Of a DNA stretch of 64,000 nt, positions 1,392 through 62,500 are shown piece after piece. The notes under the pieces are model-generated. The model did not search any database and was not told the DNA's origin. It saw only the letters and a program-made list of their open reading frames with translations. Origin of the DNA: an uncultured Bacilli bacterium (GTDB lineage: Bacteria; Bacillota_I; Bacilli_A; RF39; UBA660); the NCBI GenBank assembly GCA_947626115.1, contig CANQQX010000003.1, forward strand, positions 415-64,414, read 5' to 3'. Positions within the stretch are counted from its first letter, which is position 1. Each line of letters starts with the position of its first letter. The position numbers were made by a program, and so were the translations under genes.

Positions 1392-1401
1392 ATATTATCC
1401 C

Positions 1402-1776: not shown

Positions 1777-1787
1777 TTAAATTCCTC

Positions 1788-1901
1788 CTAACCTTGAACT
1801 TGCTTATGTTTAGGGTTATCACAAATAACCATAACTTTGCCGTTTCTTCTAATTATTTTACATTTTTTGCATATTTTTTTTACTGATGGTCTAACTTTCA
1901 T
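1788..1901 (-). CDS. rpmJ: 50S ribosomal protein L36
   Basis: Not in the ORF track. The reverse complement reads [37 protein letters not shown] then a stop. It lies between infA and rpsM as expected. Confidence 0.9.
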
Positions 1902-1913
1902 ATCAATACTCTC

Positions 1914-2174
1914 CTATCTTTTATTCCATGTTATTATCCCACGTGTTAAATCATAAGGCGATAATTGTACTGTAACGGTATCACCTGGTAGAATACGTAT
2001 CATATTAATGCGCATTTTACCAGAAACGTAGGCTTTTACAGTATGGCCATTAGGTAGTTCAACTAAATAATCTGACCCCTTTAATACTTCAATGACCTTG
2101 CCTTCAACTTCAATTTTATCATTCTTTTTAGATTCTGCCAAATTCTTATGTTTATCTTTTTTCGAATCTGCCAT
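1914..2174 (-). CDS. infA: translation initiation factor IF-1, with about 14 extra basic residues at the N-terminus
   Basis: The S1-like core is [35 protein letters not shown]... Confidence 0.95.
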
Positions 2175-2945: not shown

Positions 2946-3580
2946 TTTAAAATTTCCTTAATCTTATCTGTTATTTCTTCATTTGATGCTAATGCATCAA
3001 TGATATGTAATTTATTTTTATTTTCATAAAATTCTTTTATTGGTTTGGTATTGTTAATAAATGTTTCAAATCTAACTTTAAAAGATTCTTCATTATCATC
3101 ACATCTTTTAGTTAAAGACTCGCCACATTTATCACAAATACCATCTTTCTTTGGTGCTAAATTCTCATAATAGATATTATAAGATGCGCCACAAGAACAT
3201 GTAAGACGTCCAAGTGCTCTTTTTAATGCTTCCTCAAATGGTAAATCTAAATAGATAACTTCATAATTATTTAAATTTAATTCTTGTAGTAAATTATCTA
3301 AAGATTCAGCTTGAGTTATTGTTCTTGGATAACCATCTAAGATAAATGGTTTAGTAATATTATCTAGTTTATTTTTAATAAGTTCATAAACTAATTCATC
3401 ACTAACTAAATTACCTTTATCAATGATTTCTTTTATTTCCATACCTAACTTACTACCACTAGATATTTCTTCTCTTAACATATCACCAGTAGAAATGTGG
3501 ATATATCCTAAATCTTCTAATCTACTACTTTGAGTTCCCTTACCTGCCGCAGGGGGCGCAATAAAAATCACACTTTTCAT
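2942..3580 (-). CDS. adk: adenylate kinase with a zinc-lid cysteine pattern
   Basis: P-loop APPAAGKGTQ and lid CSCG...CDKCG. Confidence 0.95.
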   Translation of the reverse strand: MKSVIFIAPPAAGKGTQSSRLEDLGYIHISTGDMLREEISSGSKLGMEIKEIIDKGNLVSDELVYELIKNKLDNITKPFILDGYPRTITQAESLDNLLQELNLNNYEVIYLDLPFEEALKRALGRLTCSCGASYNIYYENLAPKKDGICDKCGESLTKRCDDNEESFKVRFETFINNTKPIKEFYENKNKLHIIDALASNEEITDKIKEILK

Positions 3581-4845
3581 TATCTTATCCTTCTTCTTTT
3601 TTCTTTATAACTTCTAGCAAGCAAACTACTTTCCATTTGTTTATAAGTTTCAATTGCAACTCCTACTACGATAAGTAAACCAGTTCCACCAATAGTAACT
3701 GTACTAGGAAGAGATGTAAATTTACTTATAAGTACAGGAAGTATTGCTATAACCATTAAGAATATACTACCAACTATAGTTAGTTTACCAATAGATGAAC
3801 TAATATATTTTGATGTATCTTCTCCGGGTCTAACTCCTGGAATATAGCCACCTCTTTCATTTAAGTTTTTACTCATTTCTTCTGGGTTCATTATCATAAA
3901 TGTATAGAAGTATCCAAAGAAAATAATTAATATTAAATATAATATAATTCCGGTATTAGATGTATAAACAATATAATTATTTATAAATTCCATTGCTTTT
4001 TCATTACCAGTTAAGGCTACTATTGTTGATGGTATTGTTAGTAATATTTGAGCAAATATTACGGGAATAACACCAGCAGCATTAATTTTAATTGGTAAGA
4101 AACTTTGTTGGGCACCATAAGCAGAAGTAGTTCTATTTGCGTATTGTATAGGTATTCTTCTTTCAGCAAGTTGAATATAAATAATACCAACTAATACTAA
4201 AATATATACTAAGATGAATACTACAAATAAACATATTCCTACCCATAGAGTGTAATCACTATTGATAAATCCATTGTAAGCCCCAACAAATATTCTTGGC
4301 ATACTTTGAATAATACCAGCCATGATAATCATTGATGAACCATTACCAATACCTTTTCTCGTAATTTCATCACCTAGCCATAAACAGAATGATGTACCAG
4401 CAGTCATAACTAGAGCGGTTTTAATCATATCCATTGTACCTAGTGATGATTTCATATAGAATAGACATAAAGCATAAGCTTGAGCAAAAGCAAGTATTAT
4501 TGCTAAATATCTAGTTATTTTATTAATTTTTTGTCTACCAACATATCCTTGATCTTTTAATTCTTTGAAATATGGAATAATATCCATTTGTAATAATTGC
4601 GTAATGATGGATGCAGTAATGTAAGGAGAAACTCCTAAAGCAAAGATGGAGAAGTTTTGTAAACCACCACCACTCATTAAGTTAAATATTTCTAAGAATC
4701 CTAAATCTTGATAGATTTTAGATGCCCAAGGAATAGTAACTGTTGTACCTAGACAAAATATTCCTAAACATAGAAGCGTAAAATAAATTCTATGTCTTAA
4801 ATCTTTATTGGATTTACTAAATAATTGGGAAAACCCACGAAACAT
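3580..4845 (-). CDS. secY: preprotein translocase subunit SecY
   Basis: 421-aa polytopic protein between rplO and adk. Confidence 0.97.
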   Translation of the reverse strand: MFRGFSQLFSKSNKDLRHRIYFTLLCLGIFCLGTTVTIPWASKIYQDLGFLEIFNLMSGGGLQNFSIFALGVSPYITASIITQLLQMDIIPYFKELKDQGYVGRQKINKITRYLAIILAFAQAYALCLFYMKSSLGTMDMIKTALVMTAGTSFCLWLGDEITRKGIGNGSSMIIMAGIIQSMPRIFVGAYNGFINSDYTLWVGICLFVVFILVYILVLVGIIYIQLAERRIPIQYANRTTSAYGAQQSFLPIKINAAGVIPVIFAQILLTIPSTIVALTGNEKAMEFINNYIVYTSNTGIILYLILIIFFGYFYTFMIMNPEEMSKNLNERGGYIPGVRPGEDTSKYISSSIGKLTIVGSIFLMVIAILPVLISKFTSLPSTVTIGGTGLLIVVGVAIETYKQMESSLLARSYKEKRRRIR

Positions 4846-5289
4846 CTAAATCACCTCGGCTTTGCCACCGGCTTCTTCAATTTTAGTTACAGCTTTAGAA
4901 GAAAATCTTTGTGCTTTAATAGTAAGTTTTTTTTCTATTGTACCAGTAGCTAAAACTTTAATTCCAGCCAAGCTTTTTTTAATTATTCCTCTTTCTTTTA
5001 AAATTTCTGGTGTTACAACATCACCATCTTTGAAGAAATTATTTAAATCACTAAGATTAATTGTTGCATATTCGCATCTAAATCTTTTGTTATTAAATCC
5101 TCTTTTAGGTATTCTTCTATATAATGGAGATTGTCCACCTTGGAACCATGCAGGAATAGAAGCACCACTTCTAGACTTTTGACCATTTTCACCACGAGTA
5201 GCAGTTTTACCCATACCTGAGCCTGGTCCTCTTCCTACTCTTTTTATTCCTTTAGTTTCTTTAGATTTTGGTAAATTTTCTAGTTTCAT
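4846..5289 (-). CDS. rplO: 50S ribosomal protein L15
   Basis: Translation contains KRVGRGPGSGMGKTATRG. Confidence 0.95.
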   Translation of the reverse strand: MKLENLPKSKETKGIKRVGRGPGSGMGKTATRGENGQKSRSGASIPAWFQGGQSPLYRRIPKRGFNNKRFRCEYATINLSDLNNFFKDGDVVTPEILKERGIIKKSLAGIKVLATGTIEKKLTIKAQRFSSKAVTKIEEAGGKAEVI

Positions 5290-5807
5290 TATAATTCCTC
5301 CACTTTCTTGCCACGAAGTTCTGCAATATGTTCTGGAGTTCTTTGAGCTTGTAAACCTTTAAGAGTTGCTTTAGCAACATTGATTTGCGTATTGGCTCCT
5401 AAACTTTTCGCAACGATATCTTTAACACCGGCTAGTTCAAGGACAGCTCTTGCTGCACCACCAGCAATGATTCCACGACCTTCTTTAGCAGGTTTAATTA
5501 GTACAACACTACGACCAACTTTACCAGTCTCTTCATGTGGAATTGTTCTATTATCGATTAAAGATATTCTTACAACATTTTTATTGGCAGCTTGAATAGC
5601 TTTTTTAATTGCTTCAGAAACTTCATTAGATTTGCCAGTACCAATTCCTACTAAACCTTTTCTGTTACCAACAGCAACATCAGCTTTAAAACGGAAATGT
5701 CTACCACCTTTAGTAACTTTTGTTACCTTAGATATAGAGATAACTTTTTCTTCTAATAAGTTTTTCTTCGCATCATTATTTTTACGATTAAACGGTTTCT
5801 TTTCCAT
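5289..5807 (-). CDS. rpsE: 30S ribosomal protein S5
   Basis: Translation contains [21 protein letters not shown]. It abuts rplO directly, so there is no L30 gene between them. Confidence 0.96.
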
Positions 5808-5816
5808 GCTTCCTCC

Positions 5817-6173
5817 TTATATCTCTAATCCTGCTTCTCTAGCAGCATCTGCTAGAGCGCTTACACGACCATGATATAAGTAACCACCACGGTCAAAAAC
5901 TACTTTATTAATTTTTGCTTTTTTACATTTTTCAGCAATATCTTTACCTACTAATTTAGCAGCTTCAATATTACCACCATTAGCTATTTTTAAACTACGG
6001 CTTGAAGATGATACTAGTGTTGTTCCAGTTACATCATCAATTACTTGAGCGTAAATTTCAGAATTGGAACGAAATACATTAAGTCTTGGCATTTCTTTAG
6101 TACCACTTATATTTTTTCTAACTCTTGTATGTCTTATTTTACGAAGAGTATTTCTAGATTCTTTTTTTATCAT
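5817..6173 (-). CDS. rplR: 50S ribosomal protein L18
   Basis: Translation contains [18 protein letters not shown]...YHGRV. Confidence 0.96.
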
Positions 6174-6184
6174 ATTTTACCTCC

Positions 6185-6721
6185 TTAAGCCGCTTTCTTT
6201 CCTTCTTTACGACGAACATATTCATCTTTATAACGAATACCTTTACCTTTATATGGTTCAGGTTCTCTTATCTTACGAACATTAGCCGCAAATTCAGAAA
6301 CTTTTTGTTTATCAATACCTTTAATTGTTATTTCTGTATTACTTACTAGTTCTGCTTTTAGTCCTTCAGGAACTACTACTTCAACTGGATGTGAGTAACC
6401 AGCATTAACAACTATTTTGTTTCCTTGAACATTGAAACGGTAACCAACACCGATAGCTTCTAATCCTTTTTCAAAACCTTTTGATACACCAATTAACATA
6501 TTATTAATTAATGAATTAACAGTTCCTTGCATCATATTAGCAGTCTTTGAAAGACTAACTTGTTTAGTTTTAACAGTACCTTCTTCAACTACTACTGAAA
6601 TTAAAGGATTAACATCTAGGGTAAGTTCACCTTTACTACCTTTAACTAATAACTTATTACCATCAATTGTAACAGTTACACCTTCAGGTATATTTAATTT
6701 TCTTTCACCTATTCTACTCAT
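6185..6721 (-). CDS. rplF: 50S ribosomal protein L6
   Basis: Translation MSRIGERKLNIPEGVTV... Confidence 0.96.
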   Translation of the reverse strand: MSRIGERKLNIPEGVTVTIDGNKLLVKGSKGELTLDVNPLISVVVEEGTVKTKQVSLSKTANMMQGTVNSLINNMLIGVSKGFEKGLEAIGVGYRFNVQGNKIVVNAGYSHPVEVVVPEGLKAELVSNTEITIKGIDKQKVSEFAANVRKIREPEPYKGKGIRYKDEYVRRKEGKKAA

Positions 6722-6727
6722 AATTAC

Positions 6728-7126
6728 TTACCAAATATAGGCAAGGACTTCGCCTCCTAACTTTTGGCTTCTTGCTTCTTTATCAGTCATTAGACCTTTA
6801 GAAGTAGAAATTATAGCAATACCTAAGCCGTTTAGAACACGAGGAACTTCATCAGCTTTAGCATATACTCTTAAACCAGATTTACTAATTCTTCTTAAGC
6901 CAGTAATAACTCTTTCTTTTTTAGCACCATATTTAAGAGTTAATGTTAAATTATCACCTTGGGTACTTTTTTCATATTTAAAATCTTCTATGTAACCTTC
7001 ACGCTTTAATATTTCCGCAATACCTAAAGTCATCTTTGTACCAATTACAGTAACTTCAGGATATCTCATAATATTAGCGTTTCTTATACGAGTTAACATA
7101 TCTGCTATTTTATCTTGTACAAACAT
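6728..7126 (-). CDS. rpsH: 30S ribosomal protein S8
   Basis: Translation contains [14 protein letters not shown] prefer the ATG at 7126, which follows a GGAGG, over the track start at 7147. This also removes the overlap with rpsN. Confidence 0.95.
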
Positions 7127-7140
7127 ATTTGCTCCTCCTT

Positions 7141-7326
7141 CTACCAACTTGATTTCTTGACGCCAGGAATTTGACCTTTATTTGCTAGTTCTCTAAAACA
7201 AATACGACATAATTTGAATTTAGATAAAACTGCATGTGGTCTTCCGCATCTTTCACATCTTGTATATTCTCTAGTCGAAAATTTTTGTTTACGACTATTT
7301 TTAACAATCATACTTTTCTTTGCCAT
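7141..7326 (-). CDS. rpsN: 30S ribosomal protein S14, type Z (zinc form)
   Basis: 61 aa with [10 protein letters not shown]...CRIC. Confidence 0.95.
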
Positions 7327-7334
7327 AACTTCAC

Positions 7335-7874
7335 CTAACCTTTAAATGGCATTCCAAATGCCTTAAGTAATGCAAGTGCTTCTTCATTACTCTTTGCTGT
7401 TGTAACAAAGACGATATCCATTCCTCTAACTTTATAAACATTGTCATATTCAATTTCTGGGAAGATTAATTGTTCTTTAATTCCTAAAGTATAATTACCA
7501 TTACCATCAAAAGCATGAGCAGATATACCACGAAAATCACGAACTCTTGGTAAACCAATTTTAATTAATTTTTCCATGAAATTGTACATATTTTCACCTC
7601 TAAGTGTTACTTTAACACCAACAGGTTGACCTTCTCTTAATTTAAAGCCAGCGATTGATTTACGAGCATTTGTAATAATTGGATGTTGACCTGTAATAAG
7701 TTCAAGATCTTTTTGGGCAGCTTCAATAAATTTAACATCATGACTACCTTCACCAACGCCCATATTAATAACAATTTTATCTAGACGTGGAACTTGCATT
7801 ATACTTTTATATGAAAATTCTTTCATTAAATCTTTTTTTATTGTTTTATCATATAGTTCTTTAAAATTACTCAT
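7335..7874 (-). CDS. rplE: 50S ribosomal protein L5
   Basis: Translation and spc-operon order. Confidence 0.96.
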
Positions 7875-7882
7875 AAATTCAC

Positions 7883-8224
7883 CTACTTACTAGCTTTCTT
7901 GGTAGTTTTCTTTTCAGTTGTTTTTTTAGTTTCTTTCTTTGTTGTTTTTGTTTCTTTTCCTTCTACCTTTTTAGTTTCTTTTTTAACTTCTTTTTTTGGT
8001 TTTTCATCTTTAACTAATTTAACATTAGAAATATGAATTGGCATTTCGATATCAAAAATACCACCTTTATCTTCATTAGTTCTAGGTTTTGTATGTCTTT
8101 TAGATATATTAATACCTTCAACAACAACTTTTTGGGCATTTTTAAATGTCTTTAAAACTTTACCAGTTTTGCCTTTATCTTCACCAGCAATAACCATTAC
8201 ATTGTCATTTACTTTTATTTTCAT
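7883..8224 (-). CDS. rplX: 50S ribosomal protein L24 with a Lys/Thr/Glu-rich C-terminal tail
   Basis: KOW core [15 protein letters not shown]. The tail is [25 protein letters not shown]... Confidence 0.95.
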
Positions 8225-8232
8225 ATATCCTC

Positions 8233-8601
8233 CTATAAAACCTCAGGAGCTAAAGATACGATCTTCATATAATCTTTTTCTCTTAATTCTCTAGCTACTG
8301 GACCTAGTACTCTTGTACCAACTGGTGATTTATCATCTCTAATAATAACGCAAGCATTATCATCAAATTTGATATAACTACCATCAGCACGACGAACACC
8401 TTCAACAGTTCTTACGATAACAGCTTTTACAACTTTACCTTTTGGCATATTACTATTAGGAATAGCTTTTTTAACAGTACCAACAACAACATCACCAATG
8501 TTACCGCTTCTAACTTTAGATCCGCCTAAAACTTTAATTACTAAAAGTTCACGAGCGCCTGTATTGTCAGCAACTTTTAATCTTGTTTCTTGACTAACCA
8601 T
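8233..8601 (-). CDS. rplN: 50S ribosomal protein L14
   Basis: Translation contains [21 protein letters not shown]. Confidence 0.97.
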
Positions 8602-8611
8602 AATATACCTC

Positions 8612-8869
8612 CTAAAGTACTACAGCTTTTTCTAAGACTTCAACTAATTCGTATTTCTTAGTTTTAGAAATAGGTTTAGTCATTCTTATTCTAACTGTAT
8701 CTCCTATATTTGCTTTATTCTTTTCATCATGTGTTGCATATTTTTTAGAATATTTAACACGTTTATTATATAGTGGATGACGCTTGTAAGTTTCAACTAA
8801 AACAGTGATAGTCTTATCATTTTTACTACTTACTACTTTTCCAACTAATTCTTGTACTCTTTTAGCCAT
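8612..8869 (-). CDS. rpsQ: 30S ribosomal protein S17
   Basis: Translation and operon order. Confidence 0.95.
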
Positions 8870-9072
8870 TATTTACGTCCCTCCTCTATTTCTCTTTCTT
8901 TAAGAACAGTTTTCATTTTAGCAACATCTTTTCTTAATGCTCTAAGTTCAGTTGGATGTTCTAAAGTACCATTTGCTTGTTGCATTCTTTTAGTGAATAA
9001 TTCTTCTTTTGTACTAATTATCTTTTTCTTTAAATCAGCATCAGATAATTTTCTAATATCTTTAATATCCAC
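8869..9072 (-). CDS. rpmC: 50S ribosomal protein L29
   Basis: 67-aa helical protein between rplP and rpsQ. Confidence 0.93.
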
Positions 9073-28250: not shown

Positions 28251-29024
28251 TTATAACTCTACATTATTTAAAATATCTATTAATTCATCTTTGCTTACAT
28301 TATATCCTTGTATATTATAAAAGATATTATTGTATACAAAAGTGCAGAATGTTTGTGGCCAATATTTACTCTCTGACCATTTAATAATATTAACATCTAA
28401 ATTTAATTTATCTAGGTGATAAGTCTCTAAAAATTTTGATACTGATGATGTTCCCTTTAAAATACTAATATTTTTAAATTCTTCTTCATCATCTTTCGTA
28501 GCATATTGAGTCATAAAGTTTATATCTACTTGTAAATATTTCTTTTTCCGTGTTTCTTCTTTATTCAAATCATATTCACTATAATTATCATCATTTTGTA
28601 ATTTTATAACCCTTATATTTTCATTTTCATCTAATGTTAATTCACAAATATTATAACTATCTTTATTGAAGTTATTAAATTTTAATAATTTTATGTTTAA
28701 TCCTTCTTCTAATTCTTCATGTGTAATATTCTTTTTACATACAAAGTTAGTATTAACTTCTAATTTTTCATTTAAATCTAAATCAAAGATTGTGTCTTTA
28801 CCAAACTTTTCTGTATCTTTCATTTGATAAATATAATCTTCAATGTATTCTTTGGCCATTACTCCAACCCCTAGAAATATAAATAATATTAATATTACAA
28901 TAACAGGTTTTAATATATATCCTTTAGATAATTCTTTTTTATAAATAGTATTATTATATATTTTTTCATCTAATTCTTTAGATACTTTAATATCTTTAAA
29001 AAAATTATTAAATTTATTTTTCAT
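28251..29024 (-). CDS. putative anti-sigma factor (short cytoplasmic N-terminus, one transmembrane segment, extracytoplasmic domain)
   Basis: 257 aa. It overlaps the sigma gene by 11 nt. The transmembrane segment is ILKPVIVILILFIFLGVGVMA. The C-terminal ...YNIQGYNVSKDELIDILNNV recalls DUF4367-type anti-sigma ectodomains (from memory, needs an HMM check). Confidence 0.6.
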   Translation of the reverse strand: MKNKFNNFFKDIKVSKELDEKIYNNTIYKKELSKGYILKPVIVILILFIFLGVGVMAKEYIEDYIYQMKDTEKFGKDTIFDLDLNEKLEVNTNFVCKKNITHEELEEGLNIKLLKFNNFNKDSYNICELTLDENENIRVIKLQNDDNYSEYDLNKEETRKKKYLQVDINFMTQYATKDDEEEFKNISILKGTSSVSKFLETYHLDKLNLDVNIIKWSESKYWPQTFCTFVYNNIFYNIQGYNVSKDELIDILNNVEL

Positions 29025-29496
29025 TGTAAACTCCTTTCATTTCTTTGGCTAAACTTTTAACTATCCTATCTAGTTTAGTTTGAACAGTAGAAGAATTCAT
29101 CTTTAAAATACTCGCTATTTCTTTATGTTTATAACCTTCATAATAATATAAAAATATAAGTATTCTATCTTTAGGTTTAAGTTTAAATAAAGCATCCTTT
29201 AAATCGTTATCATAATTTTCTAAGTAATATAAATTATTTTCTTCTTTTTTATCCATTTGAATTACTCTTTTATACCAAGAAGATAAAAAATAATTTTTAC
29301 ATTCATTAACTGTAACTTTAATACACCATTTTTTAATTTCAATATCACTTGTAAATTTATTTAAATTTTTAAATAATTTAATAAAGACACTTTGAGTAAT
29401 ATCTTCCGCTTCATTTATATTTTTAGTATAACTAAATGCTAATCTTAAAATATCATTTTTGTATAAATTATAAATTCTAATAAATTCTTCTTCCAT
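29014..29496 (-). CDS. ECF-type sigma-70 family RNA polymerase sigma factor
   Basis: Region 2 (AEDITQSVFIKLF...) and region 4 (LKPKDRILIFLYYYEGYKHKEIASILKMNSSTVQTKLDR) are present. The ATG at 29496 is preferred; the track start at 29523 is a TTG. Confidence 0.88.
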   Translation of the reverse strand: MEEEFIRIYNLYKNDILRLAFSYTKNINEAEDITQSVFIKLFKNLNKFTSDIEIKKWCIKVTVNECKNYFLSSWYKRVIQMDKKEENNLYYLENYDNDLKDALFKLKPKDRILIFLYYYEGYKHKEIASILKMNSSTVQTKLDRIVKSLAKEMKGVYNEK

Positions 29497-29587
29497 TACG
29501 CACCACTTTGAAAGGCCTTTCAATATAATAACAAATAAGATTATTAAAATAACTCAAAAAAATAAAAAAGCAATTTACTTTTTTATT

Positions 29588-31798
29588 TTAAGGCAATTTT
29601 ATTTTAAATGCTGTATTAGGAGTTTTTCCGTCTCCACTTTCTATTATGACATCATCTCTCAATGTAATAGTTGGTTTTACGGCAAAATAATTGTCATATG
29701 TTTCTTGAAATATACCTTGGGTTTCTGTCTCAAATACTCCAATCATTGGGTAGTTACCATCACCATATGGAGTCATTGTAGCAGTCTTATAGTCGTGTGT
29801 ATCAGTTCCTCCTAATGGATATGCAAACAATTCACCAACAATTGGAAGTCCAACATATCCAGTCCAAGTATTCGTTGTTTTTTCACAGTCTTTAGTAGTT
29901 TCAGAAGTGTCTGTTTTTTTACATATCGTATTTTTATAACTACCAATCCTGCTTCCATCTTCAGGTTTAAGTTGAGCAGGATTTACATAATAAGTATCTT
30001 CAACCAAATATTTTTTTATACCTTGTTTTTCAAGTTTTTCAAGCCATTCATTATTTAAATACGATAGCCAATAATTATCATTATTTGACTTAACAATTCT
30101 ATCATATGTCTCACTTACACCAGCATCTACATCATATTTAAAATCCATACTACCAAATTGTTTTTTCATAACAGAACCATTATCATCTTTGATATAATTA
30201 GCACTTTTTAATTTAGTTACAAATTTTCCATCTTCATTTTTATGAATATTTACTATACGATATAACATATCATTAATCTGAACAAGTTCTCCTGGAGTTC
30301 TTGTATTTATTGGATCTCCAACTTCAGCTGCTTCTATATCATCTAATAAAACAAAGGGATTAGTTTGTGTTCCTTCACCACTAAATTTAACATCTTTCTT
30401 TAAAACCACCACAGGGCGAACTCCAAAAGCAGTATTTGGCACATCCCATCCTGCTATTCCTCCAAATTGATTAACTCCATTAACACCTGTATAAGGAGGA
30501 GGGGTCAAATTAAAATATGATGATAACCACCAACTATGTCCAAGATTTAAAAAACTACTGCTACCAAACAAAGCAGTCTTGTTAAATTCGTAAGGATTCA
30601 TTAAACCAACGGGAGCTTTTGTTGTATTAGGTGGCTTAATATAGCACCAATTATACCAAGGTGATATATCCCAAGTAGCATCTTCCACTAATATGTTTTC
30701 ATGATTATATAAAGTATCTAAAAAATCTTCATTTAACCATTGTTTTATATATGAGTTTTCAAAGAATCCATCTTCACCAAAATTTATAGCCGATAAAATA
30801 TTTTCGGTAATCATTTTAACTTTTCCATCATTTAATATTTCTGTTATTCTCCACATATAACCCGAATACCAAACATAATTAAAATTCAAACATTCATTAG
30901 TTCCCCAAAAATAGGTATGATAAGGTGGTGTATCATCAAACCCATTATCACCATTACAAGGTGAATCAGTTTGGGATATATTAAAGTATCCACCATTATA
31001 ATTACACATTTTACTATTAGCAATATCCATTATAAATTCACCTAATGTTTTATTTTGAATAATTACATCACCAGTAACATTTTCTATTTGTAAAACATTA
31101 CTTTCTAAAGTAAAATCAGTTACTTTTATATTACCTACATATACATTTAAATTATTTCTATTAATACTATTATCTAAAGTAACTTTTAAAGTATCACCAT
31201 CCATTATTTCTTTAGGATATTTACTTATATTTATATTAAATCCAGAATAAGTTATTTTATGGAATTCTCTAAAATCAATATTTAAATTTAAATTATAAGT
31301 ATCTTTATCACTTCTAAAACCATTCTCTTTATATTTTATAGTAATTTTTATTTCTTTTTTTATTCCTAAATTACATCTATCAACACCACATATTTTATCT
31401 TTTAATTTATAATCATCGATAACCATTTCTAAATTATCTGGTAAATTATCAATTTTTAATATACCCATATCAACATTACCATAATTAATTATTTCTACTA
31501 TAAATGATACAGTAGAACTTTCATTAGGTAAAGTTATATCAGCAAATACTTTGTTATGATCATAATCTTGGGATAATATAATACCACCATTTGTTATACC
31601 ATTACTTACAACAGACGTAACTCTTATATCTTTTTTAGCATTTACCCTTACTGATAAATCATTAACATATAATTTTTGTAAAAAAGCCGACCAACCAATA
31701 GTTAAAAATAATAAACAACAAAAAAGAATACTCAATATTAAATATTGATAATTTTTTCCTTTTTTATATCTTTTATTTATATTTGCTATTTTTTTCAT
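29588..31798 (-). CDS. large secreted protein with a TasA/TapA-type (SipW-dependent) signal, an N-terminal domain like the 221-aa protein, and two copies of the domain found in the 466-aa protein
   Basis: The signal ...LLFLTIGWSAFLQKLYV compares with TasA GGGTWAAFND. Repeats include MWRITEILNDGKV...HSWWLSS...GVRPVVVLKKDVKFSGEGTQTNP and MLYRIVNI...AVKPTITLRDDVIIESGDGKTPN. Confidence 0.75.
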   Translation of the reverse strand: MKKIANINKRYKKGKNYQYLILSILFCCLLFLTIGWSAFLQKLYVNDLSVRVNAKKDIRVTSVVSNGITNGGIILSQDYDHNKVFADITLPNESSTVSFIVEIINYGNVDMGILKIDNLPDNLEMVIDDYKLKDKICGVDRCNLGIKKEIKITIKYKENGFRSDKDTYNLNLNIDFREFHKITYSGFNINISKYPKEIMDGDTLKVTLDNSINRNNLNVYVGNIKVTDFTLESNVLQIENVTGDVIIQNKTLGEFIMDIANSKMCNYNGGYFNISQTDSPCNGDNGFDDTPPYHTYFWGTNECLNFNYVWYSGYMWRITEILNDGKVKMITENILSAINFGEDGFFENSYIKQWLNEDFLDTLYNHENILVEDATWDISPWYNWCYIKPPNTTKAPVGLMNPYEFNKTALFGSSSFLNLGHSWWLSSYFNLTPPPYTGVNGVNQFGGIAGWDVPNTAFGVRPVVVLKKDVKFSGEGTQTNPFVLLDDIEAAEVGDPINTRTPGELVQINDMLYRIVNIHKNEDGKFVTKLKSANYIKDDNGSVMKKQFGSMDFKYDVDAGVSETYDRIVKSNNDNYWLSYLNNEWLEKLEKQGIKKYLVEDTYYVNPAQLKPEDGSRIGSYKNTICKKTDTSETTKDCEKTTNTWTGYVGLPIVGELFAYPLGGTDTHDYKTATMTPYGDGNYPMIGVFETETQGIFQETYDNYFAVKPTITLRDDVIIESGDGKTPNTAFKIKLP

Positions 31799-31807
31799 TA
31801 TGCACCA

Positions 31808-32932
31808 TTAATTATTTACTTCCATATCACTAGCTTTTATTTGTAATAAGTAAACATCATTATCATTTTTTATATAAAAATAACACTTTTGATGCTTAAC
31901 AATATTGTAATACATTATAGGTAATTTTAAATTATCTCTTACATCTAGTAATTCATTAAATTTATCAATCTTAATAATACTACTATTTTTATAATCAATA
32001 CCAGTAGTAGTTTCGACAATTAAACGATCATATTCTTTTAATATTTTACTTAAAAATTTATCATATACACTTTTCTTTTTAAATACTAATGATACTAACT
32101 TAATAATTTTACTTATATAAATTGCAGATATAATAAATAATACTATTTCTAATATTAATATTTTATAATTAAAAATCATTTCTTTATCCGCGATTGCTTT
32201 TTTCATTAATGCTGTATCTTGACTATCAAATTTAATTTCAATGCTTCGTTCTGATAATGGAATTATTATTGAACTTTCTGTTTTATCATTAATATTTAAT
32301 TTATCATCTTTACTTTTTTTATCTACTTCTAAATAAACTTTTAAATAACTATTAGTTTCTACTCCATAAGAAGAATTAAAACTGCTAACTAAACTATTAT
32401 AATAATCATAATCTATATCAATACTTTCATTTATTGCTAAAGTATTAGTATTAACCATTTCTTTATTTTGGGTATCTAAAAGTACATATTTCTTAGTAAA
32501 ATAATTTGTACTACCAGTTGAATTAGATATAATTAAATCACCTAGAATTCGATAATCAAAATTAACATCAAATATTTCATCTATTTTAAATAAATAAGAG
32601 AAATCAATATCTATTTTATCAATTAAACTAGCAACATATATCATATTTTCACCTAAATATTCAGTATCATAGAATTCATTTGGTTTAACATATACTTTAT
32701 AATTTATTCCATTATTTTCGTTATAATTAACAACTTTTGATTCCGTATATTGAATAGTTTTAGTAGCAACATAGAGACATAAAGAAAAAGCCACAAGAAA
32801 AATAGCCATGTTAAAAATCATTCTAAATCTAAAGCTAAAATGGCGTCTGTATTTACTTTTTAATTTTAGTTTTTTCGTACTTTTATTAGATTGATTGTTC
32901 TCGGCTGATTTTAACTCTTCCTTTCCTTTCAT
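31808..32932 (-). CDS. bitopic membrane protein of unknown function (possibly DUF5305-like)
   Basis: 374 aa. A basic N-terminus is followed by a transmembrane segment (FNMAIFLVAFSLCLYVA), a loop of about 210 aa, a second transmembrane segment (ILILEIVLFIISAIYISKII) and a cytoplasmic tail of about 100 aa. It is tightly packed in the operon. Confidence 0.65.
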   Translation of the reverse strand: MKGKEELKSAENNQSNKSTKKLKLKSKYRRHFSFRFRMIFNMAIFLVAFSLCLYVATKTIQYTESKVVNYNENNGINYKVYVKPNEFYDTEYLGENMIYVASLIDKIDIDFSYLFKIDEIFDVNFDYRILGDLIISNSTGSTNYFTKKYVLLDTQNKEMVNTNTLAINESIDIDYDYYNSLVSSFNSSYGVETNSYLKVYLEVDKKSKDDKLNINDKTESSIIIPLSERSIEIKFDSQDTALMKKAIADKEMIFNYKILILEIVLFIISAIYISKIIKLVSLVFKKKSVYDKFLSKILKEYDRLIVETTTGIDYKNSSIIKIDKFNELLDVRDNLKLPIMYYNIVKHQKCYFYIKNDNDVYLLQIKASDMEVNN

Positions 32933-32955: not shown

Positions 32956-34083
32956 TTACAACTCGTTTATTAAAACGGTTGGAATGCCAATATAAGGTAT
33001 TTTAATATTAACAATGCCAATTATATTATCTTTGGTAAGAACAAAATTATCTCTTTTTTCATTAGCGTCTCCCTTAGTATAAAAATAATAATCATTTAGT
33101 ACTTTTGCTTTTTCTACTAAACGATGGACTATTACTGTGCCATTATAATTAAACGCTATTACTTGTCCTTCTTTAAGACTATCATAATCATCATCAATTT
33201 TTTCAACTATTACAACATCACCTTTTCTAATAGCCGGAGTCATACTACCACTTGCAATAGCAACAGCTTGATAATGAAAATATCCTGATGTAAAATAAAC
33301 TAATAAAATGACTAATAAGGCCGGTACTATATAGGCTTCTAATCTTCTTTTCTTTTGCTTCCTTTCTACTTCTTCATCATGATCACTTTTTAAAAATAAA
33401 TAGACACGATAACAAAACAATACAGGTAATAATAATCTAATAATAGACATTATATATTGATTAGGATTAGGTACAATTGGAATTAAGTATAAATATAATT
33501 CTAATACTAATCTAAAAAGAATCATTGGTTTATATCCTACATTCATTCCTATATAAGATGCTACTATATTTGTACTAACGGCAGGTAAGACGGTTAATGA
33601 TAAAAATATAAAGGCATTATATACAGAATCGTGTAGGTTATAATATAAAGTTGTTGAAATGTCTATAAAGACAAAAAGCAAGGTCGTTGTAACAATTAAT
33701 AACCAGCTTCCTTCAGATTTACATAAAAATTGATATCTTAAAAATTCTTTAGTAATAATTAATAATATTATAGGTAGTATTATATTAATAAAATCTTTAA
33801 TATTATAATAATTATCAGTTCTAGCAAAACTTATTATTAATCCTGATAAATAGAATAAAAGAAAAAAGATTAATAGAAATATAATACAGTCAAAAATAAT
33901 ATCTTTTGTGTAACGATGTCGATCTTTCTCAAATCCGAAGAAAAACTTGAACATAACAACTATAATAAGTAAAAATATTAACATTAAATAATCACTTAAT
34001 ATACTTGAAACAAAACTATTTATACACAAAACAATGAAAATAATTGTTTCAAATGCTAACAAACGCTTATACCCACTTTTCAT
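32956..34083 (-). CDS. sipW: SipW/archaeal-type signal peptidase I fused to an N-terminal polytopic membrane domain of about 250 aa
   Basis: The C-terminal 120 aa contain ASGSMTPAIRKGDVVIV...VIVHRLV...TKGDAN (a Ser/His ER-type SPase signature). The preceding 250 aa form about 7-8 hydrophobic helices. Confidence 0.8.
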   Translation of the reverse strand: MKSGYKRLLAFETIIFIVLCINSFVSSILSDYLMLIFLLIIVVMFKFFFGFEKDRHRYTKDIIFDCIIFLLIFFLLFYLSGLIISFARTDNYYNIKDFINIILPIILLIITKEFLRYQFLCKSEGSWLLIVTTTLLFVFIDISTTLYYNLHDSVYNAFIFLSLTVLPAVSTNIVASYIGMNVGYKPMILFRLVLELYLYLIPIVPNPNQYIMSIIRLLLPVLFCYRVYLFLKSDHDEEVERKQKKRRLEAYIVPALLVILLVYFTSGYFHYQAVAIASGSMTPAIRKGDVVIVEKIDDDYDSLKEGQVIAFNYNGTVIVHRLVEKAKVLNDYYFYTKGDANEKRDNFVLTKDNIIGIVNIKIPYIGIPTVLINEL

Positions 34084-34110
34084 TCCTTTCCTCCTAAATA
34101 GTTTTGTGAA

Positions 34111-34139
34111 AATATATTAAAGATTAACTTTAATATATT
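34111..34139 (-). terminator. 12-bp perfect AT-rich hairpin just after the major-subunit gene, a possible attenuator or mRNA-stabilising element
   Basis: AATATATTAAAG-attaa-CTTTAATATATT. Only a short U tract follows it on the minus strand. Confidence 0.3.
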
Positions 34140-34150
34140 TATTTACTTAA

Positions 34151-34816
34151 TTATGCTCCTGCATTATCTTTAGAACTATAATTTAAAGTAATAGCACCAA
34201 CTGTAACAGAATAATCATTATCAGTTAATGTTGTTCCTTCACCCGCTTTAATAGATAATTTAACTGTTTTGCTTTCACCAGCAGCTAATTTCTTACCAGA
34301 TATTGAAGCTTGATCACCAGTATAATCAGCATCATCTACAGTAAGAGTAACAGTAATAGTTTTACAAGCTGTATTTATTAATTCTGTATTAGCTGTAGCC
34401 ATACCATCTCCGGTAGCAGCACAAGCTAAAGAATCATTGGCAAAATCAATACTTGTTAAATACGCATCCATTTCACCGTTATTTACGACATACCACTCAT
34501 AAGTGATTTCTTGATTATCTTTAGTAATTTTAGCATTAGCATTTACCATAGTAGTTGCTGTAATAGTAGCAGTACCAGCATTTGATTGTCCTGCTTCTTC
34601 ATTGGTAATAGTACCTGTAACAGTTTGTTGACCTTCTTCGATTTTAGATTCTGTATTAGAAAATTCTACATTAAATTTAGAAGAATCAGCTTTAACTTCA
34701 GCAGTTGGTGTAATAGTTAATTGAGCAGTGAAAGCAGCAAAACCTACTGATAAACCAACAACAGCGATTACTAAAGCAATTATAGCAATAACTTTTGAAT
34801 CTCTATTCTTTTCCAT
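34151..34816 (-). CDS. TasA-like secreted protein with a SipW-type signal peptide, the probable major fibre or matrix subunit
   Basis: 221 aa. The signal is IAIIALVIAVVGLSVGFAAFTAQL. The mature part is Thr/Ala/Gly-rich. The gene is visibly more GC-rich than its neighbours and has a strong RBS (GAAGGAGGTG). Confidence 0.75.
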   Translation of the reverse strand: MEKNRDSKVIAIIALVIAVVGLSVGFAAFTAQLTITPTAEVKADSSKFNVEFSNTESKIEEGQQTVTGTITNEEAGQSNAGTATITATTMVNANAKITKDNQEITYEWYVVNNGEMDAYLTSIDFANDSLACAATGDGMATANTELINTACKTITVTLTVDDADYTGDQASISGKKLAAGESKTVKLSIKAGEGTTLTDNDYSVTVGAITLNYSSKDNAGA

Positions 34817-34905
34817 TATTCTTTCACACCTCCTTCGTTTTATCTTCTAGCGTATAGGGAGAGTTTTACTTTCATATTAAAACTTACATACACTATTCTA
34901 AGTAT

Positions 34906-34934
34906 ATTATATAATACCCCCCCCGAAATTGCAA
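34906..34934 (-). promoter_or_regulatory. consensus sigma-A-type promoter with a G8 homopolymer inside the spacer
   Basis: On the minus strand: TTGCAA (34934-34929), the 17-nt spacer tttcGGGGGGGGtatta, then TATAAT (34911-34906). The G8 tract is C8 on the plus strand at 34917-34924. Confidence 0.7.
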
Positions 34935-34980
34935 ATGAACTTGCATTTTTTTGACGAATTGTGTAAAGAAAAAAAGAAGA

Positions 34981-35301
34981 TTACTCTTCTTCAATAACTT
35001 TTGTTAAATCAAAATTATATATTATTATATCTTCTTGTTCATATTTTATATAGGTATTACCTTCTTCAATTACATAATTAATTTTATCAAGTGGTAGAGA
35101 TAACTCTAGTAAATAATCTGGTTGAATTGCTATACCTCTTCCTCTTAAAATATTATTTTTATTAGCGTCATTAAAAAGTAAAATATTTTTATTAGTTATA
35201 ATCATTGCCAAATTATATTCTTTGTTATTAATATCTAATAAAACACTCCTATCTTCATAAATTGCTTTTTCTTTGTTTTTAGTAAAATCATAATTAAACA
35301 T
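34981..35301 (-). CDS. hypothetical small cytoplasmic protein (possibly a bacterial PH-like fold)
   Basis: 106-aa ORF 12 nt downstream of the 478-aa gene. The fold assignment is only an impression. Confidence 0.55.
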   Translation of the reverse strand: MFNYDFTKNKEKAIYEDRSVLLDINNKEYNLAMIITNKNILLFNDANKNNILRGRGIAIQPDYLLELSLPLDKINYVIEEGNTYIKYEQEDIIIYNFDLTKVIEEE

Positions 35302-35313
35302 AATATACCTCCT

Positions 35314-36747
35314 TTATCTTGTTATTCCATTTAAACTATTAACAAACAAATTAACAATTAATTTATCATCTACAAACTGTTTTTCAGTTATTGTATAATT
35401 TCGAATTGTATCTTTTATTGTTTGCAAACTATATTTTTTTAATAACATATCAATTTTATCTCTATCACCAAACCTGTTAGTAATGTATTCTGATTTGCCT
35501 TCAAATAATTTTACAAGAGCTCCTTTGGCTTGTTTAATATCATAAGCGTTTAACGTATTTTGAATAGCAGTTGTTACAATATCAATTATTTCTGCTGATG
35601 GGTCTTCATTAATAACAACTCTTTCCAAATCTTGGGTAACATCAATCATAACTCTATTTTTATTTAAAACACGATTAACATATTCATTAACCATTTCTTC
35701 AAAAAATACTGTATTATCAAGATTTCCATATATTTCTTTAGCCATAATATTTATTGCAACATTTACTGGTACATATTTCGCTAAACCTTCTCTTGTTCCT
35801 TCTTTTCTGGTAATACTTTCTATATTACCATTTAAATATTTTAAAAGTGCACCTTTGGCTTGACCGGGGTAATATTTTTCTGTTACTAATATAGCTTGAT
35901 TTAAATAAAATTTAGGATCAATAATTCTTTCTCGCCATTTACCATATTTATCTATTGATTTATTATGAGCATGAGTATAAAATTGAGATAATTCAAAATC
36001 TTTAGAAGTAGTTTGACTTAAAAGAGAATAAATATCTTTTAAATCTAAATCTTTTATTTCATGAATACAATTTTTTAAATAAATATTAAAAGATTCAACA
36101 TTTAAATCTTTTACTCTATTTTTGATTTTTAATATTTTAATAAAATTTGTAATTGCATTACATAATTCAAAATTAAAGGAAAATTTATTGTCCATAGTTA
36201 AACCAATACCATTATCACTAGCTAAAAAAGGATTAACAGTTAAAATATTTTCTCTTAAAAAGGCATTACTATGGACAAAATCACAAATTCTTTGGGCATC
36301 TTCTAAAGTATTTACTCTTATAACTAAATCATCATTACGTTCGAAAGTAGCAATTTTAGATTGATGAGTAATATTGTTACTTGCTAAAAATGTGAAAATT
36401 TGTTTACCGGCATCCACTATCTTATCTTTAGCAAAAGGAATATATAATTTAACTTCATTACCATTTAATTTACCATTAGCAAACATTAAAAAATCAAAAT
36501 TAGCTCTTTCATATACTCTTAAATTAGGAGTATGTGCAAAATAATCATAAAAATCAGCGAAGTTATCTTTTAAACTTATTATTTCAGTTGAAGATAAACC
36601 ATAATTTATTAGTAAAGAATAAACTAAATCACTAGTTATTTCTCTTTTTTTATTTTCTAAAGCTAATTTTTTAATAGTGTTTAAAAAATCTTGCATTCGC
36701 TCATAGTTAGTAACTGGTATCGTTTTCTTCCACAAATTCACTTTCAT
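35314..36747 (-). CDS. unknown 477-aa cytoplasmic protein with an internal duplicated helical module
   Basis: The ATG at 36747 follows GGAG; the track start at 36750 is a TTG. The repeats are YYPGQAKGALLKYLNGNIESITRKEG and YDIKQAKGALVKLFEGKSEYITNRFG. The N-terminal segment VKLYIPFAKDK...SKIATFERNDDLVIRV faintly recalls HopA1 / LanKC-N-type domains (from memory only). Confidence 0.65.
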   Translation of the reverse strand: MKVNLWKKTIPVTNYERMQDFLNTIKKLALENKKREITSDLVYSLLINYGLSSTEIISLKDNFADFYDYFAHTPNLRVYERANFDFLMFANGKLNGNEVKLYIPFAKDKIVDAGKQIFTFLASNNITHQSKIATFERNDDLVIRVNTLEDAQRICDFVHSNAFLRENILTVNPFLASDNGIGLTMDNKFSFNFELCNAITNFIKILKIKNRVKDLNVESFNIYLKNCIHEIKDLDLKDIYSLLSQTTSKDFELSQFYTHAHNKSIDKYGKWRERIIDPKFYLNQAILVTEKYYPGQAKGALLKYLNGNIESITRKEGTREGLAKYVPVNVAINIMAKEIYGNLDNTVFFEEMVNEYVNRVLNKNRVMIDVTQDLERVVINEDPSAEIIDIVTTAIQNTLNAYDIKQAKGALVKLFEGKSEYITNRFGDRDKIDMLLKKYSLQTIKDTIRNYTITEKQFVDDKLIVNLFVNSLNGITR

Positions 36748-52521: not shown

Positions 52522-52536
52522 ATCACTATCTCCATT

Positions 52537-52613
52537 AAAAAAGCACACACAAACAGGGATCGATGTGGCTGCTGTCTTCCAACTCTGACCAGTTTACGAT
52601 ATATTTGTTGTGC
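52537..52613 (-). ncRNA. ffs: signal recognition particle RNA, minimal 4.5S-like form (about 71-77 nt)
   Basis: On the minus strand: GCACAACAAAUAUAUCGUAAACUGGUCAGAGUUGGAAGACAGCAGCCACAUCGAUCCCUGUUUGUGUGUGC followed by U6. The segment CUGGUCAGAGUUGGAAGACAGCAGCC aligns with E. coli domain IV (CAGGUCAGGUCCGGAAGGAAGCAGCC), including the GGAA tetraloop. The 5' and 3' ends pair. Confidence 0.85.
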
Positions 52614-52619
52614 AAGTTA

Positions 52620-52648
52620 ATATTATCATAAATCATCATTTAATGCAA
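52620..52648 (-). promoter_or_regulatory. promoter of the SRP RNA gene
   Basis: TTGCAT (52648-52643), a 17-nt spacer ending in TGA, then TAATAT (52625-52620). The predicted start is about 52613. Confidence 0.6.
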
Positions 52649-61114: not shown

Positions 61115-62482
61115 TTATAACTTAGCCTTTATTTCTTTTAACATATTTTCAAGATTAGGATTATTCTTTAATTCTTTTTTAATCTTTTCACAACTAGCAA
61201 TAACTGTTGAGTGATCTTTACCACCAAATTCAAATCCTATTTTAACTAAATTTTCATCAGTTTCCATTCGACATAGATACATAGCAATTTGTCTTGGTTT
61301 AGCAATGTTATTACTTCTCTTTTTACTTTTTAAATCTTCCACGGTTATTTTAAAGAAATCCGCTACCACATTTTGAATATGTGATATTGTGTTTTCTTGA
61401 TAGATATTAACATTTATCGAATCTTTTAAAGCCTCAATGGCAAAATCTAAATCAATCACTTTTGGCATCATCATTGCGGTATAAGCAAGTAGTCTATTAA
61501 TTGTTCCAATTATATGTCGAACATCATTTGGACATCCATTGGCAATATATTCAATAACATCTCTATTTATCTTATCTTTAATACTGGAGTTATTTAGTCT
61601 TTGTTCAATAATTTCACACCTTAGTTCAAAATCAGGTGGATAAATATCAACTGGAAGTCCCCAAGCAAACCTACTTCTGAGTCTTTCTTCTATCTTCTTT
61701 AAATCATCTGGACTTCGATCACTAGATATTATTATCTGTTTATTTTTTTGATATAAAGCTTCAAAGGTATAGAAGAATTCTTGTTGCGTTAGTTCCGATC
61801 CTACTAAAAACTGTATATCATCTATTATTAATACATCAACATTTCGATATTTATTTTTAAAATTTTTAGCATATTCTAAGGCTTCTTTACCTTTTTCTAA
61901 TTTTGAAATATCAACATATTCATCACGAAAATCACTACTTGTTGTATATAAAACCTTTTTATCAGAGTTTTGGGTAATGTAATTGCCTATCGCATGCATT
62001 AAATGTGTTTTACCTATACCACTTCTCCCATATATAAATAAAGGATTTCTAATAGTCCCTGGTGATTGAGCTACATTCATCGCTGATATAAATGCAAGTC
62101 TATTTGATTCACCAACTATATAATTATCAAAGTTTAAATTAGGATTTAGATTAGTATGCCATTCGACTATTTTCTCTTCTGGCTTTTCTTCTTTAGGTGT
62201 AACTTCTTCATTTATTTTAGTATTTAAATCATTTAATTCATCTTCTGTTAATAACTTAAATTCATAATTCTTACCAGTTAAAGAAAAAATTGCATCATCT
62301 AATATATCCATATAAGAATTTGTTATAATTTGTTTATGAACTGGAAGAGGTACTTTAATAACTATTTCATTATCATCAATACTAACAAGTTTTAAATCAT
62401 TGAACCAAACAGAGAATGTTCCAGGACTAACTTGATTAGCTATTTCTTGCAAAAAATTTTGAAACAGTTCTTGTGTTTTCAT
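61115..62482 (-). CDS. dnaA: chromosomal replication initiator protein DnaA
   Basis: Translation contains NPLFIYGRSGIGKTHLMHAIGN...IIDDIQFL...KPRQIAMYLCR...GGKDHSTV. The ATG at 62482 is preferred. Confidence 0.97.
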   Translation of the reverse strand: MKTQELFQNFLQEIANQVSPGTFSVWFNDLKLVSIDDNEIVIKVPLPVHKQIITNSYMDILDDAIFSLTGKNYEFKLLTEDELNDLNTKINEEVTPKEEKPEEKIVEWHTNLNPNLNFDNYIVGESNRLAFISAMNVAQSPGTIRNPLFIYGRSGIGKTHLMHAIGNYITQNSDKKVLYTTSSDFRDEYVDISKLEKGKEALEYAKNFKNKYRNVDVLIIDDIQFLVGSELTQQEFFYTFEALYQKNKQIIISSDRSPDDLKKIEERLRSRFAWGLPVDIYPPDFELRCEIIEQRLNNSSIKDKINRDVIEYIANGCPNDVRHIIGTINRLLAYTAMMMPKVIDLDFAIEALKDSINVNIYQENTISHIQNVVADFFKITVEDLKSKKRSNNIAKPRQIAMYLCRMETDENLVKIGFEFGGKDHSTVIASCEKIKKELKNNPNLENMLKEIKAKL

Positions 62483-62500
62483 TACCTCACCCACCTTCAT

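Follow-up and report, generated by a model that had tools for sequence, protein, structure and literature searches.

A poly-G run in the promoter of a putative fibre operon

An uncultured, low-GC Bacilli bacterium from the gut carries eight consecutive G residues between the two hexamers of a putative promoter that precedes a gene for a small secreted protein. The locus raises the question of whether this run acts as a slippage switch for an extracellular fibre. The initial annotation of the 64,000-nt stretch analysed here (hereafter the window) had proposed that it does, reading a minus-strand promoter composed of TTGCAA, 17 nt and TATAAT about 90 nt upstream of a 221-aa gene, attributing the 17-nt spacing to the G8 run, and describing the C8 on the plus strand as the only long G/C homopolymer. 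This anatomy was borne out. The ATG of the 221-aa ORF, at position 34816, lies 89 nt past the -10 box, the spacer that contains G8 reads as 17 nt, and the run is the sole G/C run of 6 nt or more in the 64 kb, the runners-up being 5 nt long. With independent, identically distributed bases, the window would be expected to hold 0.028 C runs and 0.0006 G runs of at least 8 nt. The control region comprises the following elements.

34969-34992, minus strand: terminator-like hairpin (8 bp, loop GUAA) with a U-run after it, which overlaps the 106-aa upstream ORF at its stop codon
34946-34967, minus strand: upstream block TTTACACAATTCGTCAAAAAAA, also present, as CCACAATTCATCAAAAAAC, in the G-tract promoters of the Lapin-030 species (a relative discussed below)
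34925-34948, minus strand: imperfect 12-nt tandem duplication AAATGCAAGTTC / ATTTGCAATTTC, identical at 9 of 12 positions
34929-34934, minus strand: -35-like hexamer TTGCAA, 4 of 6 matches to TTGACA
34912-34928, minus strand: 17-nt promoter spacer tttcGGGGGGGGtatta, i.e., tttc-G8-tatta
34917-34924, minus strand: G8 homopolymer inside the spacer, candidate slippage tract
34906-34911, minus strand: -10 hexamer TATAAT, 6 of 6 matches
34817-34899, minus strand: predicted 5' UTR of about 83 nt
34887-34895 paired with 34848-34856, minus strand: closing stem of the leader, from comparative analysis
34827-34835, minus strand: ribosome-binding site AAGGAGGTG

A match of this quality is not significant by itself. 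Scanning 13 kb for promoter-like matches returned 108, compared with 112 ± 12 in shuffled sequences, and thus no excess; the TTGCAA/TATAAT pair scored 10 out of 12 in that scan. The credibility of the promoter therefore comes from its context and its homology. It occupies the only intergenic gap, of 165 nt, and the terminator-like hairpin at the upstream stop codon (-7.7 kcal/mol, z = -1.7) suggests that the fibre operon has its own promoter. When the -35 and -10 boxes and the spacers were assigned across homologous promoters by a scored parse, the -35 box of the window proved positionally equivalent to TTGACT in locus L012, TTGACA in L021 and TTGACC in L181, and the -10 box was aligned and invariant between the window and L012. 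The leader motif TAGAATAG starts 5 nt after the -10 box of the window. This reflects a family-wide pattern, found in many homologous loci, of TATAAT followed after 5 to 7 nt by a TAGATAG-like motif, with TAGA(A)TAG at the 5-nt spacing in many members. We infer that the TTGCAA/TATAAT promoter is the active one; the tract is predicted to lie at approximately -25 to -18 relative to the transcription start. The upstream block TTTACACAATTCGTCAAAAAAA might serve as an UP element or as the site of an activator. As for the 12-nt duplication, read from the sequence and by comparison with a promoter of locus L089, its second copy would supply the present -35 box, and, compared with how promoters of the Lapin-030 species are laid out, it appears to have displaced that box by 12 nt.

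The leader also bears on the promoter assignment. Folding of the window leader as a single sequence was not better than that of shuffles (z = -0.4). Across 12 distinct family leaders (the window, L012, L016, L044, L056, L065, L066, L087, L139, L141, L163 and L172), the two arms of the closing stem pair in 90% of cells, three pairs are changed on both sides (C-G/U-A, A-U/G-C and U-A/A-U), and the covariation score exceeds those of all 500 shuffles and all slid controls, with arms that were picked by hand in a manner favouring pairing. The consensus, TAGYRTATG ... CATAYRCTA, ends about 25 nt before the ribosome-binding site and starts approximately 4 to 5 nt past the predicted transcription start, as expected of a 5'-terminal stabilising hairpin. 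The fixed distance of the stem from TATAAT lends independent support to the -10 assignment. The stem may serve as a 5' hairpin that stabilises the mRNA or as a regulatory leader. An E-value scan of positions 34500-35400 against Rfam gave only noise, leaving the stem without an Rfam match, and a scan of the whole window at gathering thresholds returned the SRP RNA only; a riboswitch or other known RNA in the leader was rejected on these scans.

Downstream of the leader, the minus strand encodes a set of products that gives the operon its presumed function.

34151-34816, minus strand: 221-aa secreted protein, putative major fibril subunit, with an N-terminal signal anchor ending in GLSVGFAAF
34110-34140, minus strand: A-U hairpin of 13 bp with UUUU after it, between the subunit and peptidase genes (-9.7 kcal/mol, z = -2.3)
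32956-34083, minus strand: 375-aa polytopic signal peptidase I of the SipW/archaeal type (TIGR02228, 82.2 bits for a cut-off of 51.85; Peptidase_S26 match)
31808-32932, minus strand: 374-aa DUF5305 protein (PF17231, 35.4 bits for a cut-off of 29)
29588-31798, minus strand: 736-aa secreted protein, whose signal region ends in TIGWSAF and is of the same class as that of the subunit
28251-29523, minus strand: 169-aa ECF-type sigma factor and putative anti-sigma factor of 257 aa, which overlap and are separated from the 736-aa gene upstream by 64 nt

The 221-aa protein belongs to an unnamed family of at least about 120 clusters, and its gene is present in a single copy within the 64-kb window. The mature part was modelled by AF2 as a beta-sandwich (pLDDT 78). 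The protein had no Pfam or NCBIfam match, a sequence search of the PDB was empty, a Foldseek search of the model against the PDB gave no match at E ≤ 0.001, and no sequence or fold match to TasA or camelysin was detected. The initial annotation had called the operon a fibre operon; the cluster does resemble that of a secreted fibre, with its peptidase, DUF5305 protein and large secreted protein, and the term "fibre" derives from this gene-cluster architecture, the subunit being devoid of a fold match. AbpX/Tafi/TasA-like fibril loci harbour a dedicated signal peptidase I of about 10 transmembrane segments and a DUF5305 protein beside small subunit genes (bioRxiv 10.64898/2026.01.04.697558; PMC11821415). 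The operon of the window resembles tapA-sipW-tasA of Bacillus subtilis, sipW-bsaA of Clostridium perfringens and the archaeal AbpX/Tafi loci in that the gene for a small secreted subunit, here a beta-sandwich in the AF2 model, adjoins that for a dedicated signal peptidase I. Its peptidase, with some 9 to 10 hydrophobic segments ahead of the catalytic domain by hydropathy count, is of the 10-transmembrane type found in AbpX loci, and the operon also encodes a DUF5305 protein and a larger protein, putatively that of the tip. The operon therefore fits the TasA/AbpX-like type of fibril cluster, and it combines a signal anchor with a dedicated signal peptidase, in keeping with a secreted or surface product.

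For the DUF5305 protein, the literature on those loci points to a putative role as an accessory subunit of the signal peptidase (bioRxiv 10.64898/2026.01.04.697558; PMC11821415). By analogy with the architecture of AbpX/Tafi clusters, the 736-aa protein is a candidate tip protein or adhesin. The hairpin between the subunit and peptidase genes is a possible attenuator. The ECF sigma/anti-sigma pair may belong to the operon or regulate it; dependence of the promoter itself on an ECF sigma factor was rejected, its hexamers being of the sigma-A type.

As regards the genomic surroundings, the window lies close to the putative replication origin, with ORFs that resemble dnaA (61115-62500), dnaN, recF, gyrB and gyrA by size and order. 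The GC skew changes sign in its last 2 kb (approximately 62-64 kb), and every gene is read from the minus strand. The SRP RNA is located at 52528-52624 and a ribosomal-protein-like cluster at 1-13 kb.

Poly-G promoters in related species and their changes in length

A genome scan with the family alignment yielded 80 loci, all from metagenome-assembled genomes (MAGs) of uncultured gut "Bacilli", "Mycoplasma sp. CAG:877" or "Tenericutes". In the 624 kb of these family loci (27% GC), there are ten G/C runs of 7 nt or more; all are G runs, and all ten sit between TTGACx and TAxxxT boxes upstream of family genes. They are split between two species, the L021 species and the one represented by "Lapin-030_bin25", whose name suggests that the host habitat is presumably the rabbit gut. 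With the window species, three species thus possess tract-bearing promoters. Over approximately 1 Mb of related loci, intergenic G runs of at least 7 nt are confined to the promoter spacers of subunit homologues. In total, at least 20 homologous tract instances were collected, every one of them in a promoter spacer and with the G run on the sense strand. The poly-G promoter-spacer tract is thus real and not due to chance. The majority of family members carry no tract, and in 80 further loci from metagenomes (372 kb), all of more distant relatives, no promoter tract was found, long G runs being present only in unrelated G-rich sequence.

In the L021 species, the tract precedes an orthologous operon with subunit, peptidase and DUF5305 genes, and the promoter reads TTGACA, caattgaatt-G8, TATACT. 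The Lapin-030 species has at least 13 tract promoters. Seven of them belong to a tandem array of 10 subunit genes (L181, positions 1045-9003; the same array is found in L029; CANQHF010000027.1), in which 7 of the 10 paralogues have a G9 promoter of their own, 2 have the same promoter minus the G tract, and 1 has no promoter of its own. In the two tract-less paralogues, the -35, TGn and -10 elements are unchanged and the 17-nt spacer is an ordinary one, which points to 17 nt as the working spacing. A second locus of this species, L089, provides three further tract promoters. The third, L186, is the core operon, where two subunit genes each have a G9 promoter; another G9 promoter is found at 8196-8204, at the far end of the contig and beyond a transposase gene. 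That gene, of the IS1595 family (L186, positions 6638-7726), lies directly 3' of the core fibre operon. The tandem array, for its part, adjoins a mazEF toxin-antitoxin pair and a gyrA/topoisomerase IV-like gene.

Counted from the -35 box, the start of the tract lies 4 nt downstream in the window species, 10 nt in the L021 species and 0 to 1 nt in the Lapin-030 species. These shifts among species fit better with selection for a G run, or for mutability, within the spacer than with a fixed binding site. Locus L012, whose subunit is 49% identical to that of the window, has an orthologous promoter and leader with an interrupted G-rich spacer of 17 nt, aGGGGCGGAGGttatta, showing that the promoter design works without a pure homopolymer. 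Another relative, L011 (positions 1-165), has a subunit 75% identical to that of the window behind an unrelated promoter and leader (TTGTAA, 17 nt, TGnTATAGT) devoid of a G tract; the same leader is found in L024 and L043. This arrangement indicates that the coding and control regions have separate histories.

Comparisons of contigs within the sister species revealed changes in tract length. Between L182 (ERZ27249657, about 7.7x coverage) and L183 (ERZ27249662), 4,103 nt contain no substitution and two indels, both of them G9-to-G8 changes in promoter tracts. Similarly, L187 (ERZ27249187) and L186 differ over 5,626 nt by no substitution and by one indel, again G9 to G8 in a tract. Three G9-to-G8 changes are thus the only differences in 9.7 kb, making these tracts hypermutable relative to the flanking DNA. 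They affect 2 of 7 tracts in one Lapin-030 sample and 1 of 2 in another, and since the other tracts in the same contigs stay at G9, a sample-wide bias in homopolymer calling does not account for them. For the L021 species, G8 is found in the MAG and G9 in two independent Logan assemblies, the 130-nt flanks being identical. Judged from the sequences, a one-base change of a tract amid identical flanks is the signature expected of slipped-strand hypermutability. Every length change seen in the relatives involved the G9 state.

The consequence for the promoter would be a change in spacer length, from 17 to 16 nt or the reverse in the Lapin-030 species, and between 18 and 19 nt in the L021 species. 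Both the 16-nt and the 17-nt spacers of the Lapin-030 species carry G9 beside a TGn extended -10 box, and the effect of one base may thus be modest. Given that the alternatives are 17 versus 16 nt, where TGn may soften the effect, and 18 versus 19 nt, volume control rather than strict ON/OFF switching is to be expected. A change in expression level is accordingly the more likely outcome of a one-base change in the spacer than a clean ON/OFF transition.

Several contigs end at the tracts. Position 1 of L010, a contig of low coverage, is the first base after the tract, and in the L021 species L096 (position 1) and L097 (positions 1-3) start flush with or inside it. In ERZ27249657, the array is broken into L184 and L182 exactly at one G8 promoter. 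Contig ends located at, or a few bases before, tracts are consistent with read-level heterogeneity or with a drop-out of coverage at poly-G. Poly-G promoters are likely under-assembled in metagenomes, and in practical terms the tracts cause metagenome contigs to break, or to be given the wrong length, precisely at promoters.

The tract of the window species

The initial annotation had looked to related isolates for length heterogeneity and had named a tract invariant across strains as evidence against switching. At the level of assembly consensus, which reports the majority allele, invariance is what we found. All 10 assemblies that cover the tract read G8 (the window and L001, which are identical, and L002, L004, L005, L094, L180 and L006-L009), with no sign of length switching. 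Their local identity to the window ranges from 100% to 91%, and among them are lineages that diverge by 2% and by 8 to 9% in the flanks; L006-L009 form the divergent lineage, with a subunit 78% identical to that of the window. A scan of JGI metagenomes with exact flanks for tract-length variants of this species gave 0 matches, the species being present only in ENA and Logan data. Its samples include ERZ27060228, ERZ27249317, ERZ27249050, ERZ27249059, DRR849029, DRR848762, DRR849023, ERR10663699, ERR10663731 and ERR10663733. The proposal of phase variation through the tract thus stands in part: G8/G9 variation between identical flanks occurs in two sister species, and the window species is uniformly G8.

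The tract is more conserved than its surroundings in this species. The 200 nt that include the promoter are 99.5% identical between lineages, compared with 84-92% for the neighbouring genes and 75% for the body of the subunit gene. In the alignment of window positions 34151-34816 with L006 positions 3001-3678, the mature subunit is approximately 75% identical; in the same pair, identity reaches 99-100% over the promoter, the leader, the signal peptide and the peptidase gene, and 84-92% in the housekeeping genes on either side. This mosaic divergence suggests recombination together with diversifying selection on the subunit. By this comparison, the presumed target of the promoter is hypervariable as well as secreted.

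Proposed mechanism, alternatives and implications

On these comparisons, we consider it fairly probable that the G8 run is a functional slippage switch, or a volume control, in the sigma-A-type promoter of a TasA/AbpX-like fibril operon. Replication slippage would add or remove one G, bringing the interval that separates the -35 and -10 boxes from 17 nt to 18 or 16 nt; either spacing would weaken the promoter, and a weaker promoter would give rise to heritable and reversible subpopulations with less fibre or none. The G8 state, predicted to be optimal or ON at 17 nt, the canonical optimum, is the one that dominates every sampled population of the window species. Changes in tract length would thus be expected to alter transcription, and switching would be expected to occur in the window species as well. 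Eight G residues are at the short end of the tracts known to be mutable. The data from the window species fit either of two pictures, a switch that selection in the gut keeps ON or a tract that is effectively frozen.

The second picture corresponds to an account in which G8 is a fixed spacer filler, or a relic of the switch of its relatives, held at 8 nt by purifying selection on the 17-nt spacing. There would be no functional ON and OFF subpopulations, and the operon would be regulated otherwise, for instance by a factor acting on the upstream block, by the leader stem or by the ECF sigma factor. The finding of G8 in every one of the 10 assemblies, whose flanks diverge by up to 9%, speaks for this account, as do the 99.5% identity of the 200-nt promoter segment next to genes at 84-92%, the 17-nt spacing that L012 retains with an interrupted tract, and the lack of a tract in most family members. 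However, strong selection in vivo for the ON state would also produce invariance of the consensus. Moreover, a G8 run would be costly to keep at 25% GC if mutability were unwanted, a single interruption being sufficient to stabilise it, as in L012, and the G8/G9 tracts of the sister species change length over spans with zero substitutions. We thus regard a fixed or relic tract as unlikely, albeit deserving of serious consideration.

Much less probable, in our view, is that the G run serves as a sequence-specific recognition element, contacted by a regulator, an alternative sigma factor or RNA polymerase in the spacer, and is conserved for binding. The constant presence of G on the sense strand would agree with such a role, and so would the interrupted G-rich block at the same place in L012, the conserved upstream blocks that accompany the promoters and the ECF sigma/anti-sigma pair at the end of the operon; the hexamers, however, are of the sigma-A rather than the ECF type. 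Recognition is also difficult to reconcile with an offset from the -35 box that ranges over 0-1, 4 and 10 nt in three species, with a length of 8 or 9 nt that varies within species, and with two array paralogues that keep the same -35 box, TGn and -10 box without any tract. As to chance, or an artefact of sequencing or assembly such as two-colour Illumina poly-G or homopolymer miscalling, we give it almost no credence. The contigs L010, L096 and L097, which begin flush with or inside a tract, do betray difficulties of the reads or the assembler at these sites, and the G8/G9 differences come from contigs at about 7x coverage. Yet the same tract occupies the same place in 10 independent ENA and Logan assemblies, the chance expectation is about 0.03 per window, and the homologous instances, at least 20, are all in promoter spacers. 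In addition, within one sample only given tracts differ in length, and two independent samples of the L021 species both gave G9.

A slippage switch of this kind has well-documented counterparts. In Treponema pallidum tp0126 and Neisseria meningitidis porA, a poly-G tract between the -35 and -10 boxes, with an optimum of 17 nt, has been established experimentally (PMC7864442). As in the window, a G homopolymer lies in the sigma-70-type spacer of a surface-protein gene, and slippage alters transcription in those systems (PMC7864442). They differ from the window in that they belong to diderm pathogens and that both tract variation and its effects on the promoter were measured. The window, in turn, comes from uncultured low-GC gut Bacilli, its operon is of the TasA/AbpX-like fibril type, its tract is invariant at the consensus level, and it is known here from sequence alone. 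The tpr subfamily II genes and tprL of T. pallidum are paralogues that each have an upstream G tract of about 7-11 nt, and these tracts vary independently within and between isolates (PMC7864442). This organization is reminiscent of the Lapin-030 species, with its multiple paralogues, each with its own tract, and its at least 13 G9/G8 promoters; the window species is unlike it in having one copy in 64 kb. The tpr tracts differ in being located just upstream of the transcription start, not clearly between the hexamers, and their products are outer-membrane beta-barrels rather than secreted fibril subunits.

Other parallels concern arrays and fimbriae. In Mycoplasma hyorhinis, poly-A tracts in the promoter spacers of the tandem vlp lipoprotein genes set each gene ON or OFF and generate combinatorial surface variation, the switching having been shown experimentally. 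The vlp system shares with the array described here a tandem organization of variable surface-protein genes with their own promoters, in a low-GC Bacilli/Mollicutes lineage; it differs by the use of poly-A instead of poly-G and by products that are lipoproteins, not substrates of a SipW-type peptidase. In Bordetella pertussis, poly-C tracts are found in the fimbrial promoters of fim2, fim3 and fimX. Here too paralogous genes encode major subunits of a surface fibre and a G/C homopolymer lies in the promoter region, but the tract, longer at about 13-15 nt, separates the -10 box from the binding site of the activator BvgA, and the fibre belongs to the chaperone-usher fimbriae. Regarding fibres of the TasA type, matrix-fibre expression is known to be heterogeneous within populations of C. 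perfringens and B. subtilis (PMC7395162). In contrast with the mechanism proposed here, that heterogeneity stems from regulatory circuits and not from a simple-sequence repeat.

Nearly all that is known of phase variation in gut commensals comes from invertible promoters, and contingency loci based on simple repeats have been described chiefly in pathogens, among them Neisseria, Haemophilus, Campylobacter, Treponema and Mycoplasma. Simple-sequence-repeat contingency systems are, to our knowledge, rarely reported in gut Firmicutes, and we know of none for the TasA/AbpX-like class of fibres. Our search of the literature on homopolymer phase variation in gut Firmicutes returned inverton studies only. 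The proposed mechanism matches that of porA and tp0126; what is new here is the host, uncultured low-GC gut Bacilli, and the target, a fibril cluster of the TasA/AbpX type.

We also put forward a broader proposal, tentatively and with belief and doubt nearly in balance. In a small clade of uncultured gut Bacilli, poly-G spacer tracts might switch the members of a multigene family of TasA/AbpX-like fibril subunits one by one and provide combinatorial variation, antigenic or functional, of a biofilm-matrix fibre, much as in Mycoplasma vlp or Treponema tpr, the operon of the window being a single-copy version held ON. If true, a G run of at least 8 nt between TTGACx and T(G)nTAxxxT would offer, for genomes with 25% GC, a signature that can be searched for in metagenomes. 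Uncultured low-GC gut Bacilli would then diversify a TasA/AbpX-type extracellular fibre by slippage, one species doing so gene by gene over a large array of paralogues, and such diversification would point to immune, phage or niche pressure on the fibres.
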